From the NCBI GenBank assembly GCA_037443545.1, contig JBBIOD010000005.1:15210-79209 (forward strand): 64,000 nt of DNA. The letters run 5' to 3'. This document shows positions 1 through 6,000 of the stretch, one piece after another (position 1 is the first letter of the stretch; every line of letters begins with the position of its first letter). Source of the DNA: Ignavibacteriales bacterium (GTDB lineage: Bacteria > Bacteroidota > Ignavibacteria > UBA10030 > BY39). The position numbers are program-made.

Positions 1-3000
1 TTTTTTGGGGTATCCATTCGCTCAACTCCCAGACAATTTATCCTAAATATTTTAAGCTCGAAAATAATCCGACCGAACAAACCCAACCCCCAAGTAACAG
101 CGTCTCACAGATTGCAGTTTCGGATTCAATTTTTTGGATCGGGACGAGTAGTGGATTAGCTAAATCTATTAACCTTGGTAACAGTTGGTTTGCCTACAAC
201 AAATTTTCAGAATTTCGCCACCCCGGTATCTACGCTCTTGATGTTGAACATGATACTATTTGGACTTCAACAGGATATACCAAAAAAAAGGATAACGAAA
301 AAATAGCTACTGGTGGTGGCTATACATTTTCAACCAACCGCGGCATGAGTTGGAATTATGTAAATCAAACTTTAGATTCGCGAAGCGATTCAACGATTGA
401 CTATGGTATAAATAAAATCCGAATCCTCCCTGTTGTAGTTCCCGAACAAAATGTAACTTACGACATCTCCCTCGGTCCCGGCAAAGTTTGGATTGCAAGC
501 TGGGCGAGCGGACTCAGATTTTCTACTAATAACGGAATCGATTGGAAACGAGTTGTTCTACCACCCGACAACTTGAGTAGTATCAAGCCAACTGATACTC
601 TAAATTTTTATTACGACCCGCGTAAAAATAATAACTTCCTTGCCTTTTCTGTTTTAGCAATCGATAACGATACAATTTGGTGTGGAACCGCCGGCGGAAT
701 AAATAAATCGACTGACGGCGGAATCAGTTGGAAAAGATATACAACGCAGAATCAAGATTCCCCGATTCTTGGTAATTGGGTTATTACTATTAAAGCACAA
801 CGATACCAAAACAAATTAAGAATCTGGAGTACTAATTGGTTGGCAGGCACTAACGAAACGAACGGCGTTAGTTACAGCGATGATGGTGGAAATAGTTGGG
901 TTAATATTTTAAAAGGAATAAAAGCTTATGATTTTGCTTTTAAAGATTCCATAGCTTACATCGCCACCGAACAAGGAATTTATAGAACCGATGACGGTGG
1001 CAAAACTATTAACCGATCATACCTAATTACCGAACCGGAGAACAGACAAGTTATAACTTCTTCTTCAGTATTTTCCGTTGGAGTTATCGCCAATAATGTT
1101 TTAGCCGGTACTGGCGACGGTATGGCTATTACAAAAGATGATTCAGAAAATATCTTTGGAGCTAAGTGGAGAATTTTACGAAAATACGAAACTATAGGCA
1201 CAAAATTTCTCTCTTACGCATATCCCAATCCATTTGCAGCAAAGTCTGAATTCACCCGAATTCATTACAGCACTTATGGGAGTGTTGCGGTTGTCTCTAT
1301 CGAAATTTTTGATTTCGGTATGAATCGAGTGCGCACACTGATCCAAAATGCTCACCGATCGGGTGTTACCGAATTTGGCGAAATATGGGATGGAAAAAAT
1401 GATGACGGTAATTATGTCGCCAATGGAGTCTATTTTTACAGAGTCCAAATAAATAACGCCGAACCGATTTGGGCAAAAATAATGGTTTTACAATAAACGA
1501 ATATGAAAATATTTATTAAAATAGTGGTTTGTATCATCCTTTTCCTGAATTGGTCAACACTTGAAGCCCAAATTGGGGGTAAAGCCGGCTCGTTTGCAAG
1601 AATGGGTTTTGGAGCAAGAGGTATGAGTATGGGGAATGCGATATCTGCCGTTACAACCGGCGAAATTAACTCTTACTATAATCCCGCTTTAATTCCTTTC
1701 GCTGAACGTAGAACAGCGAGTGTGACCTACTCGTTTTTATCATTCGATAGATTTCTAAATTTTTTGAGCTACGGACAAGCAGTACAACCGACAGCAGGAA
1801 TTTCGTTTGGCATTATCAATGCGGGTGTAGGTGATATCGAGGAACGAAATTCTGATGGAATAAAAACAGGAACGATTTCCACTTCTGAAAATATGTTTTT
1901 TCTATCTTTCGCGAACCGCATTCATAATAGTGTTTCGATAGGTGTCTCGGTAAAGATGTTTTATCATAAATTATACGAACAAGTCAGTTCTACGACGGTC
2001 GGTTTTGATATTGGTGTGTTAATACTAGCAGCTAAAAATATATCAGTCGGCTTCACTCTCCAGGATATTAATTCTAAATATAAATGGGATACAAATCCAA
2101 TTTATGGTCGCGGACGCCAGACCGAAGATGTATTCCCAAACCTTCGCCGAATTTCGGTAGCATACCAACTTCCGAACAGTTTAGGGACTGTCGCTGCTGA
2201 ATTCGAAAATTCGTCTGTCAAAACAAATCACTTGCGCTTCGGGACTGAAATTATTCTGCACCCATCTTTTACAATCCGAACCGGTGTCGATAGATGGAAT
2301 TGGAGTAATAACTACTCTGGTCTCAAACCGACTTTCGGATATTCGATTCAAGGCGATTTCGATGGCTGGACTCCATCTCTCGATTATAGTTACGTTATAG
2401 AACCATTCGCCACCAACAACATGCACATAATTACTCTATCAATAAAATTTTAAGTTATGAAACCGTTATATATATTTTTAATGACTATTTTTTTAATTCA
2501 AACTGCTTTCCCACAACCCGGGACTACCGGTTTGTCGTTTTTGAAAACCGGAATAAGTCCCCGAGCGATTGCGATGGGAGATGTATATCCAATTGAGAAA
2601 TCCGACCCCGCAGCAGTTTATTATAATCCTGCGTTTTTGTCGCTTTCGAATCAGACACAAGTAATTTTTGTGCATCGAGAATGGTTAAAAGATACACGGA
2701 CTGAGTTTTTAGGATTTTCCACTATGTTGGATAATTTTCGGTTTGCATTTGGTGTTAATTCAACGAGCATAAACGACATCGAACAAAGAACTATTCCTGG
2801 CGATCCAGAAGGAACTTTCACTTCACGTAACGCAGCATTAAGTTTTACAACCGCTTACCTCATTAACAAACTGAATTTCGGTATTAGTGGAAAATATTTA
2901 TATGAAAAAATATTAATTGACGAAGCGTCGGGTTACGCATTCGATTTGGGTTTACTCTACAAAGATTTGTATGGATTCAACTTGGGGTTTTCTGTTAGCA

Positions 3001-6000
3001 ACTTAGGATCGATGAACGAACTCAGGTATCAATCTTCTACCCTGCCTGTAATTTCTCGATTTGGTGTGAGTCGCATAATTGATTTTGAAAACTTTGATGC
3101 GTTAATAATTCCTGCTGCCGATTTCGTTACAATTACTAATGAGAAAAAAAGCCACATCCATTTAGGGGTTGAGATGACATATAAAAATAAGTTTACAATC
3201 CGGACTGGAATGCGGACAGGATATGAGGCAAGTTTTTTCGCAGCGGGAGTTGGTGCACGATATAGTATCCTGGCTTTCGATTACGCATTTGCCCCTTTTA
3301 AGTACGAATTGGGACCGATTCACAGTTTTTCGATTTTAATCAACCTATAAATAAAAACAAAGAATAATTATGTCTCGAATTACAAAATATATAATTCCAA
3401 CCCTGATGTTATTTGCACTCGCATTATATGCTTTTTATCCTGGAAGTACGGCTAACAAATTCGGATGGAATTCATTTAGCGCTGGCTTTGAAAAAGGCAA
3501 AAAGGAAAATAAGAAAATATTCATAGATGTATATGCCGATTGGTGTAAGTGGTGCAAAAAGATGGATGCCGATGTTTACGCCAACCCTGATGTTCAAAAA
3601 TATTTGGGAGAAAAATTTATTCCGATTAAGTTTAACGGTGAAGCGACTACAGAAATTACATACAACGGTGAGAAATTTACCCATGCCGATTTAACTCGAG
3701 CATTCGGAATTAGTGGCTTCCCTGCTACCGTGTTTATGAAACCCGATGGCGAACCTATTTCAGTATTACCAGGTTATCATGCCCCCGATGAATTTTTAAA
3801 AATCCTAAAATTTATCGGCGACGACCATTACCTAAATTCGTCATACGAAGAGTATTTGAGGAAGAAGAAGTAATGATGCGAACGCGGAATGCGATTGGAT
3901 CAATGAATGGCTATTAACTCAGCACACCTAAACCCGCTTTGAATTGCTCCTTCGATCGTAGCTGGTAATCCGGTATTCGTCCAATCGCCGGCTAAATAAA
4001 AATTCTTTATCGACGTTTCAGGATTCGGGCGTATGCTTTCAACTTCGTTTGTGGCTGAATAAGTAGCTCGTTTTTCTTTTATAACTATCGAATTTGTGAG
4101 ATGTGCCTGCCTGCATTCTGGAAATACTTCTCGTAATTCTCCGACAGCCATTCTCACTAACTCATCTTTTCTTAAATGAATTTCATCTCTTGCCCCACTG
4201 ATGACCGCAGAAATATAGTTTTCCGGTTTTGTCGCATCGCCCGTTATCCTTCGTCTGTTAAAAATCCATTGTAGATTTCGATTTATCAACCCAACGAATT
4301 CGATATCCATCACTTTTCTATCGAACCACAGATTAATAGAAACTATCGGCGACGATTCAAATATATTTAGCTCATTCGACATGGTATTATTCAAATAACC
4401 TTTCGGTATCAGTTGAGGAACATTGTAATATGGCACCGAACTTATAACATACTTCGACTTTATCTTTTTTCCTGCGTCTACCCCGAGTGCTGTCCCATCT
4501 GAAACGATGATTGATTTCACCTTCGCATTCGTTATTACTTCCCCTTTATTTTTCCTCAGCAAGTCAACTCCTTCTTCAACATATAGTTTTGTCTGTCCGA
4601 CAGTCGGAATTAAAACATCGGCATCACTCTTTTTAGCTAAAAAAGTGTTCTTCAATGAACGTGCAAATAATAAAGCCGAAGCCAGATTCGGATTCTCGTT
4701 CATCACTGAAATTACAATCGGATACCAAAAGCATTGTTTAGTTTCCTCGCTTTGGTTCAAACTATCGAGCCACGATTCGACGGATAACAGAGAAAGTTTT
4801 CTCTCAAGCTGTTCGTTCCATCGTTTTAATTCCAACCCAACTCTTAATAATTTATTTCTATCGCGAAAAGATAGGATTTTGTAACTCAACATTGCTGCTG
4901 TAATATCGAACGGCTTGGGGAAATTTGATATTTCGAAAGTATGCAAACCTTTTTGCGGATGGTGAAAATATAAATGGGGTTTAGTTTGTCGCTTAAGGTA
5001 ATGCTTCGTCCCGATTAAGTCCAAATATTTTAATGTGTTGTGATAAGCTCCCACAAGAATATGCTGCCCGTTATCGACAACATCTCCTGTATTGGGGTCA
5101 GTAAACGAGTAGGTCCGCCCGCCTAATACGGTTTTCTGTTCTATTAAAACAACTTTAGCACCGGATAAGGAAAGCTTGATTGCGGCAGCCAAACCGCTTA
5201 GTCCGCCTCCAATTACAATTACATCGGCTGTCATACAGTTTTCAGAAGGCGAAGTTTAATCCAATATTTGATTGCTATCATAAGTTGCAAGTACCGGGGT
5301 AACTTTAGACTCTTTTTGTAAACATTATAACGATTTGCTTTGATTCGAAGAAGAGTATGATAATAAATCCGTTCCATAATTTTTGGTGCGAATAAAAATT
5401 GTTTGTCTTCTTGTTTCAACGAGTTTTGTGCAGCGCTATAAAACTCTTCAGCACGTTTTGTTTCAAACTCCATCAGATTGACAAAATTCGAGTTGTATTC
5501 GTTGTTAAAGATATTTTCTTCCGTGTATCCGAAACGTTTTAAATCTTCTTGCGGAATATAAATCCGGTTAATCTTCGCATCGGCTTTAATATCGCGAAGA
5601 ATGTTTGTAAGCTGTAAAGCTATTCCTAAATTTTCAGCGTACTTTTCAACCCGCTCGTTAGTAGGTCCGAATATTTTTATACTCATCAAACCAACAGTCG
5701 AAGCAACTAAATAGCAGTATTTTTTTAATTGCCCAAAATTCTCAATACGTGTTTGGGTTAAATCCATCTCAACACCTTGAATAAGTTCATAAAAATGTTG
5801 AGTAGGAATATTAAACTTTTTTGTAACTTCAGCTAGTTGATTAAGAACAGCAAATTGAGAATCGCCTCGTAGAGCTTTGCCGAGTTCGATTCGCCATTTG
5901 CGTAAAAATATTGTTTTTTTATCTCTGTCCGCCTCGTTATCAACTATATCGTCGGTAGTGCGACAAAAAGCATAAACAGTATTGAGTGCGTTACGTTGGT

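Follow-up and report, generated by a model that had tools for sequence, protein, structure and literature searches.

In current type IX secretion system (T9SS) models, a single PorV shuttle serves all type-A cargo, and private carriers are assigned to type-B cargo only (PMC12618676). In type-B systems the dedicated barrel is required for secretion of the cargo as well as for its anchorage at the cell surface (PMC12618676, PMC9143113). In Porphyromonas gingivalis, PorU and PorZ keep their C-terminal domains (CTDs) and are anchored via PorV and PorQ (PMC12365241, PMC10202324), with porU and porV carrying the consecutive locus tags PG0026 and PG0027. It was proposed earlier in a review that cognate PorV-like barrels shield CTDs from cleavage (PMC10202324). 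Here we describe a 64-kb stretch of DNA from an Ignavibacteriales bacterium (contig JBBIOD010000005.1, positions 15,210 to 79,209; the window), in which three genes for proteins with a type-A-like CTD are each directly followed by their own gene or genes for barrels of the PorV/PorQ family. Type-A-like cargo families that are genetically locked to such private barrels occur across at least six named phyla, and one of these families resides inside TonB-dependent receptor operons.

In the whole window, hidden Markov models (HMMs) built from these sequences detected exactly three proteins with a CTD and exactly four barrels, all of them adjoining. At all three loci, the CTD gene is located directly 5′ of its own barrel gene(s). 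The genes concerned are the following.

1..1496, plus strand, in frame from base 3: cargo 1 (locus 1, module B), a secreted protein of 510 aa with 13 N-terminal residues outside the window
1503-2453, plus strand: module B barrel 1 (orthogroup B1), PorV/PorQ family, 316 aa, NF033709 95.8 bits (cutoff 90)
2457-3350, plus strand: module B barrel 2 (orthogroup B2), PorV/PorQ family, 297 aa, NF033709 137.4 bits (cutoff 90)
40299-41339, minus strand: locus 2 barrel (orthogroup A), PorV/PorQ family, NF033709 170.6 bits
41364-44849, minus strand: cargo 2 (locus 2), 1,161 aa, CTD at residues ~1049-1151, conserved tail '...AIFIQEERLDTF'
44876-47998, minus strand: locus 2 TonB-dependent receptor, Pfam TonB_dep_Rec_b-barrel 94.5, Plug 42.3 and CarbopepD_reg_2 74.1 bits
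50606-51652, minus strand: locus 3 barrel (orthogroup A), PorV/PorQ family, NF033709 138.6 bits
51684-55268, minus strand: cargo 3 (locus 3), 1,194 aa, all-beta surface protein, type-A-like CTD followed by a C-terminal extension, TIGR04183 26.7-31 bits (cutoff 23)
55298-58261, minus strand: locus 3 TonB-dependent receptor, Pfam TonB_dep_Rec_b-barrel 95.4, Plug 30.8 and CarboxypepD_reg 64 bits

The original prediction, which had started from an accurate account of the paradigm outlined above, had correctly read the coordinates and the gene order at the three loci: the 6-bp gap between cargo 1 and the first of two tandem barrels (the gap between B1 and B2 is 3 bp), and the cargo-then-barrel order at loci 2 and 3. 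The adjacency is far beyond chance. When the gene order was permuted, counting a barrel on either side and ignoring strand and order, a barrel neighbour was placed beside all three CTD genes in 1,861 of 1,000,000 shuffles, and the adjacency is kept in relatives.

The three loci had been treated as equivalent, which they are not. They represent two old, conserved modules, A (loci 2 and 3) and B (locus 1). Cargo 2 and cargo 3 are paralogous over their full length (26% identity, E 1e-79), the barrels of the two loci are 43% identical, and directly upstream of each cargo gene is a gene for a TonB-dependent receptor. Neither the receptors nor the paralogy had been noticed before. Both receptors exceed the Pfam cutoffs for Plug (23.9) and TonB_dep_Rec_b-barrel (27) and carry a CarboxypepD_reg-type domain at the N-terminus. 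Cargo 2 begins with a galactose-mutarotase-like supersandwich, which is followed by beta-sandwich domains and the CTD. Cargo 1, the full length of which could be read on an identical contig (L083), combines a 7-bladed BNR/sortilin-like beta-propeller with a C-terminal Ig-like, type-A-like CTD and is unrelated to cargo 2 and cargo 3 outside the CTD. Module B has no TonB-dependent receptor.

Databases contain over 1,000 homologs of the cargo-2 family, and 80 genome loci encoding such homologs were analysed with 8-kb flanks. In 65 of these loci, the receptor, cargo and barrel genes directly follow each other on the same strand, and 7 further loci are partial, with contig ends or problems in the calling of open reading frames (ORFs). 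The gap between cargo and barrel has a median of about 28 nt; inside the window triads, gaps are 24-31 nt. Intact triads were found in metagenome-assembled genomes (MAGs) labelled Ignavibacteria, Eisenbacteria, Zixibacteria, KSB1, Latescibacterota and Gemmatimonadota, thus in at least six named phyla of the Fibrobacterota-Chlorobiota-Bacteroidota (FCB) group. Around the triads, the gene content varies from lineage to lineage (ribosomal genes, pdxJ, Opp-type permeases, peptidoglycan-recycling peptidases), and therefore the conserved unit is the triad itself. This distribution contradicts the earlier suggestion that the arrangement may be lineage-specific, as does the map of the alginate utilisation locus of Rhodothermus marinus, where the same three annotations follow each other in the same order: TonB-dependent receptor, T9SS type A protein, PorV/PorQ family protein (PMC9530828). 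T9SS type A and porV/Q genes are also shown for some Porphyromonas hmu clusters (PMC12106395). In the literature library that could be searched, no description of these CTD-barrel modules as a system was found; such genes are named, without discussion, in only two figure legends.

Module B was analysed in 80 metagenome loci with homologs of the barrel encoded at 2457-3350. The order propeller-CTD protein, B1, B2 is found in every locus with enough upstream DNA, and a barrel gene lies directly 3′ of the cargo-1-family gene in 41 of 42 loci. The cargo-1 family is strongly conserved, with a mean column identity of 61%.

We systematically counted how frequently CTD proteins are accompanied by a barrel. 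A downstream barrel is present for 73 of the 84 cargo-2-family proteins and for the mentioned 41 of 42 of the cargo-1 family, while none of the 32 other CTD proteins with room downstream, as far as detectable in the same ~1.9 Mb of relatives' DNA by a model built from these families, has an adjacent barrel (the iterated CTD HMM stayed at 163 hits; divergent CTDs may be missed). One further apparent exception turned out to be a truncated cargo-1 fragment. Pairing is thus family-specific and does not reflect a general type-A rule.

Within the cargo-2 family, the presence of a barrel correlates with the type of C-terminus. Triad cargo has 8-9 extra residues past the canonical last CTD strand, with the consensus 'A(I/V)F...E(R/Q)(L/I)(D/N)x(F/Y)'. 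In 68 of 87 cases, the last residue of this tail (e.g. '..ERLDxF', '..EERLDTF') is F or Y. In the window, the tail codons are found at two positions.

41364-41393, minus strand: C-terminal extension of cargo 2
51684-51713, minus strand: C-terminal extension of cargo 3

In the monomer model of cargo 2, the tail is disordered (predicted local distance difference test, pLDDT, below 50 for residues 1157-1161), as anticipated for a partner-binding segment. Five members of the cargo-2 family have the canonical type-A ending 'KKMxLIR', and these have neither a barrel nor a receptor adjoining. The same five are those whose CTDs are recognised by Pfam models.

All four barrels pass the NCBIfam model NF033709 ('PorV/PorQ family') with 95.8-170.6 bits against the cutoff of 90, and nearly the whole profile is covered. 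The NPA motif, which had been noted before, is invariant in the alignment of the four barrels and is shared by PorV from Flavobacterium johnsoniae ('WNPAKY'). That protein (6h3i_F, from the SprA-PorV complex) is the sole PDB sequence match of the locus 2 barrel (E 1.2e-6) and the sole meaningful one of the barrel at 2457-3350 (E 0.0031), while the PDB sequence search gave no match for the barrel at 1503-2453. Homologs of the barrel at 2457-3350 are named 'PorV/PorQ family protein' at NCBI. None of the four passes an equivalog model: scores are 70-91 bits for PorQ (NF033711, cutoff 220), 45-79 bits for PorV2 (NF052325, cutoff 325) and 36-67 bits for PorV (NF033710, cutoff 250). The barrels had been described as similar to PorQ or to PorP/SprF. 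Membership in the PorV/PorQ family has been substantiated; the likeness to PorP/SprF has not, as the barrel at 2457-3350 reaches 29.1 bits with TIGR03519 (cutoff 90.55) and is borderline with Pfam PF11751 (22.5 vs 22.3), and the other three barrels match neither model.

The barrels fall into three separate orthogroups, A, B1 and B2. The best non-self match of every barrel is inside its own group, and median scores are 224-277 bits within but 41-68 bits between orthogroups. Each barrel orthogroup is inherited together with its cargo. Many homologs of the barrel at 2457-3350 carry a match to Pfam UPF0164 (PF03687), a family that appears in Treponema pallidum proteome papers, a hint that a wider superfamily of FadL/PorV-like barrels may extend to the spirochetes.

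The CTDs are less easily assigned than the barrels. On the type-A model TIGR04183 (cutoff 23), only cargo 3 passes (26.7-31 bits). Pfam PF18962 has no match in any cargo, while cargo 1 passes FlgD_ig (PF13860) with 33.3 bits against a cutoff of 27. For type B, the three CTD fragments have no match to TIGR04131 even at E<=10, and CHU_C (PF13585) finds cargo 1 only, with 17.1 bits (cutoff 27). All three CTDs are located at the C-terminus and carry a PNP motif, a GxY motif and a near-terminal Lys; the AlphaFold2 (AF2) models show a C-terminal beta-sandwich. The cargo-2 family has an invariant P1052-N1053-P1054 and G1122, with K1148 conserved to at least 90%; in the cargo-1 family, P408-N409-P410 and K492 are invariant. 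According to published translocon structures, this Lys is the only conserved type-A residue in contact with PorV (PMC10994853). The best full-model matches are to the C-terminus of PorZ for cargo 2 and cargo 3 and to that of PorU for cargo 1. Because the motifs and the Lys are kept, PorZ and PorU are the best matches, scores on TIGR04183 are mixed and type-B matches are missing, we classify the CTDs as type-A-like but divergent. Of the earlier assignment to type A, the exclusion of type B has thus been confirmed, but the type-A model itself accepts cargo 3 alone. Cargo 1 was also considered as a PorZ and rejected, as it lacks a full-length match to NF052228 (two beta-propellers and a CTD); the only matches in a PDB sequence search with cargo 1 were spurious ones to antibody Fab fragments.

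When compared to the described systems, the modules are closest to the pairs PorZ-PorQ and PorU-PorV, as their CTDs have their best matches in the C-termini of PorZ and PorU and their barrels fall into the same NCBIfam family. They differ in that the proteins are not PorZ or PorU, that no barrel passes the equivalog model for PorV or PorQ and that the cargo looks like binding proteins and not like secretion machinery; module A, in addition, comes with a TonB-dependent receptor and an extra C-terminal tail. With type-B cargo and its PorP/SprF-like carriers (SprB-SprF; Fjoh pairs; PMC12618676, PMC9143113) they have in common the linkage of a cargo gene to a PorV-like barrel of its own, with one cargo family per carrier. 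However, the CTDs miss the type-B models, and the barrels fail TIGR03519 and pass the PorV/PorQ model. Similarity to SusC/SusD (RagA/RagB) of Bacteroidota polysaccharide utilisation loci exists for module A, where the gene for a large, non-catalytic and probably ligand-binding surface partner comes directly after that for a TonB-dependent receptor, which starts with a carboxypeptidase-regulatory-like domain. In contrast to SusD, this partner is all-beta according to the cargo 2 model, the barrel is an obligatory third gene, and no carbohydrate-active enzymes (CAZymes) are encoded beside the window triads. An annotation of the triads as SusCD loci was rejected, as the receptors score 84.3 and 66.5 bits with TIGR04056 (cutoff 368), matching in the N-terminal region only, and the downstream proteins have neither a SusD match nor a lipobox. 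The pair BamG-BamH from the beta-barrel assembly machinery (BAM) of Bacteroidota is similar in principle only: there, a 14-stranded FadL-like barrel holds a surface protein by its extracellular loops (PMC12578637), but a BamA context is missing here and BamH lacks a CTD.

We propose, by analogy to PorZ-PorQ and PorU-PorV, that every barrel serves one retained CTD as its dedicated carrier and anchor. This cargo-specific anchor, which had been suggested originally, is the best hypothesis that we can offer, and we consider it about as likely as not. A surface protein with a type-A-like CTD would be exported by Sec and its gene co-transcribed with that of its own PorV/PorQ-family (FadL-like) barrel. 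The cargo would cross the outer membrane via the T9SS translocon and would then be taken over by its cognate barrel, either instead of or after the general PorV shuttle. The CTD would stay uncleaved and would be held non-covalently on the extracellular face of the barrel, which would anchor the cargo at the cell surface. In module A, the cargo, with its supersandwich of the carbohydrate-binding type and no catalytic domain, would be the surface partner of the upstream TonB-dependent receptor. It may play a role like that of SusD or of a surface glycan-binding protein, but it would be delivered by T9SS and barrel docking, not by lipidation. In module B, the beta-propeller CTD protein and a neighbouring lipoprotein (see below) may be held by the two specialised barrels.

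Several points weigh against this proposal. We infer T9SS dependence, retention of the CTD, physical docking and a functional link to the receptor, and core T9SS genes were not seen among the window genes checked with family models. Cargo 1 and cargo 2 stay below the TIGR04183 cutoff (21.7 and 17.2 bits), and cargo 2 and cargo 3 have no Pfam CTD match. The two barrels for a single CTD protein in module B are not explained by a one-to-one anchor model. The correlation between tail and barrel may go back to a single evolutionary event, because the five proteins with a canonical tail form one sub-clade. The window triads have housekeeping genes (rpoA, rplQ, ssb) as neighbours and no CAZymes in the vicinity, and thus a polysaccharide substrate is unsupported. 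Finally, the barrels could be transport channels, because PorV-family barrels are FadL homologs.

This last point leads to the alternative that the barrels are FadL-type uptake channels which, together with the TonB-dependent receptor, import a hydrophobic or amphipathic substrate or product. Adjacency would then reflect a shared nutrient-uptake operon and no contact between CTD and barrel. Apart from the homology between PorV-family proteins and FadL (PMC12578637), it can be pointed out that some barrel homologs match Toluene_X (PF03349), that one is named 'long-subunit fatty acid transport protein' at the Joint Genome Institute (JGI), and that every triad contains a transporter. However, module B couples barrels to a CTD protein without any receptor, the barrels pass a model that is specific for PorV/PorQ, more than a FadL model, and the presence of a barrel follows the type of the CTD tail, which together make uptake channels quite improbable. 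For locus 1, an ordinary arrangement could be considered, in which the core T9SS attachment machinery of this lineage consists of a PorZ-like propeller protein, the PorQ belonging to it, and PorV. Like PorZ, cargo 1 consists of a propeller and a CTD; there are two different barrels, as for PorQ plus PorV, and they score higher with the PorQ than with the PorV model. Such a core role would also agree with the high conservation of module B (61% mean column identity) and its frequent position beside glycosyltransferases and other envelope genes, and PG0026 (PorU) and PG0027 (LptO/PorV) provide a comparable arrangement. Since locus 1 fails every equivalog test, we consider this explanation unlikely. 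That the adjacency is a coincidence or an annotation artefact could be argued from the fact that there are only three loci in the window. This has a negligible probability in view of the shuffling result and of the independent loci of other organisms, which show the same gene orders in 65 of 80 and 41 of 42 cases; chance adjacency is refuted because the synteny is conserved there.

Returning to the dedicated anchor, a more far-reaching interpretation can be advanced tentatively, and with some doubt: the triad might represent a third class of T9SS signal and carrier, beside the pairings of type A and PorV and of type B and PorP/SprF. Its hallmarks would be a type-A-derived CTD, a conserved aromatic-ended tail and permanent docking on a dedicated PorQ-like barrel. 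In the triad-bearing FCB phyla, it would then be secretion and docking, not lipidation, that provide a TonB-dependent receptor with its surface partner, as a phylum-spanning alternative to SusC/SusD. To our knowledge, SusD homologs are specific to Bacteroidota.

The principle of a cognate PorV-like barrel for a CTD is already known, and what is added here is a widespread variant with a testable link to TonB-dependent uptake. If docking occurs, the principle of PorZ-PorQ would extend from the secretion machinery to ordinary surface proteins, and FCB bacteria outside the Bacteroidia would have a route to provide TonB-dependent receptors with surface binding partners. An annotation rule would also follow, as a PorV/PorQ-family gene after a CTD gene would indicate an anchored, not a released, protein. 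Docking can be tested directly in cultured Rhodothermus marinus with the alginate locus (PMC9530828).

As to the transcription of module A, each window triad looks like a three-gene operon-like unit. Both triads are flanked by a promoter-like site and a strong terminator-like hairpin, at the following positions.

48147..48175, minus strand: promoter-like site TTGACA-17-TATATT upstream of the locus 2 receptor, 11/12 matches (consensus match only)
58397..58425, minus strand: promoter-like site TTGACA-17-TATATT upstream of the locus 3 receptor, 11/12 matches (consensus match only)
40251..40279, minus strand: terminator-like hairpin with a 12-bp stem and a T run, 20 nt past the stop of the locus 2 barrel
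50553..50578, minus strand: terminator-like hairpin with an 11-bp stem and a T run, 28 nt past the stop of the locus 3 barrel

Promoter-like sites are not in excess overall (73 vs 66.6 expected from shuffled sequence). The two best matches of the region are those upstream of the two receptors, and this placement is suggestive.

The surroundings of module A show several additional features. On the 3′ side of the locus 2 barrel, an NHL-repeat protein is encoded (39353-40264, minus strand). Its listed TTG start overlaps the hairpin at 40251-40279; on locus L001 the gene was called with 290 aa, which places the start near 40225. In close relatives (L004-L006), the NHL-repeat gene is followed by a further PorV-family barrel, an ssb-like gene and a third cargo paralog, which has the tail '..QPDQGxNxF/Y'. 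Between the two triads, a 760-aa protein with weak matches to PIG-L (26.6 bits vs 28.2) and DUF7408 is encoded (48229-50511, minus strand), and this gene (cluster 36) also precedes a triad in close relatives (L003 and L006). In many loci from Ignavibacteria, a protein of about 600 aa without a barrel of its own is encoded directly upstream of the triad receptor (L022, 3150-4907; equivalents in L007, L023, L026, L029, L036, L039, L042, L055 and L061). It is absent from the window triads and has a canonical Por_Secre_tail, with 42 bits in the single example that was scanned (L022). Triads or cargo homologs were also encountered in a MAG labelled Bacillota (L038, L045; JBLNEL01) and in a rotifer assembly (P0072, labelled Rotaria sp.), which most likely reflect mis-binning and contamination and not true hosts.

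Module B is accompanied by a gene for a lipoprotein of about 285 aa (with a lipobox Cys), which is found directly upstream of cargo 1 and is kept with the module (L083, 1-642; L085, 3510-4427; L121, 3630-4484). It consists of repeated Ig-like units with 'AGDGxYS/ANDGIFS' motifs and has no Pfam match. This lipoprotein might be the client of the second barrel. Upstream of it, a gene for an M50 peptidase is often found, and on the 3′ side the barrels are often followed by a thioredoxin-like gene or by glycosyltransferase genes. In the window, the thioredoxin-like gene is represented as follows.

3370..3873, plus strand: thioredoxin/DsbH-like periplasmic protein, with matches to the NCBIfam models for DsbH and the DsbD C-terminus

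Its ORF cluster has 28 members across the 80 metagenome loci, often directly 3′ of the barrels, and it is uncertain if this gene is part of module B. The adjoining region (3900-6990, minus strand) codes for a FAD-dependent protein resembling amine oxidases and phytoene desaturases and for two squalene/phytoene synthases. From this combination of domains, it looks like an HpnCDE-type squalene synthesis cluster, and the squalene-type neighbourhood recurs at many module B loci.

The window itself is chromosomal DNA of an uncultured bacterium, with a G+C content of ~38%. Identical genes are present on Logan contigs from SRR11582151 and SRR11582157, and the nearest genome is a MAG labelled 'Bacteroidota bacterium C1_metabat.bin.52' (87% protein identity). 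The window genes checked with family models are mostly housekeeping genes (tilS, ftsH, leuS, rpoA, rplQ, rpsD, ssb, squalene/hopanoid-type genes). Among such genes, a 514-aa protein is encoded at 26933-28477 (minus strand), the only match of which is a weak one to an ORC-CDC6-like AAA domain (29.6 bits).

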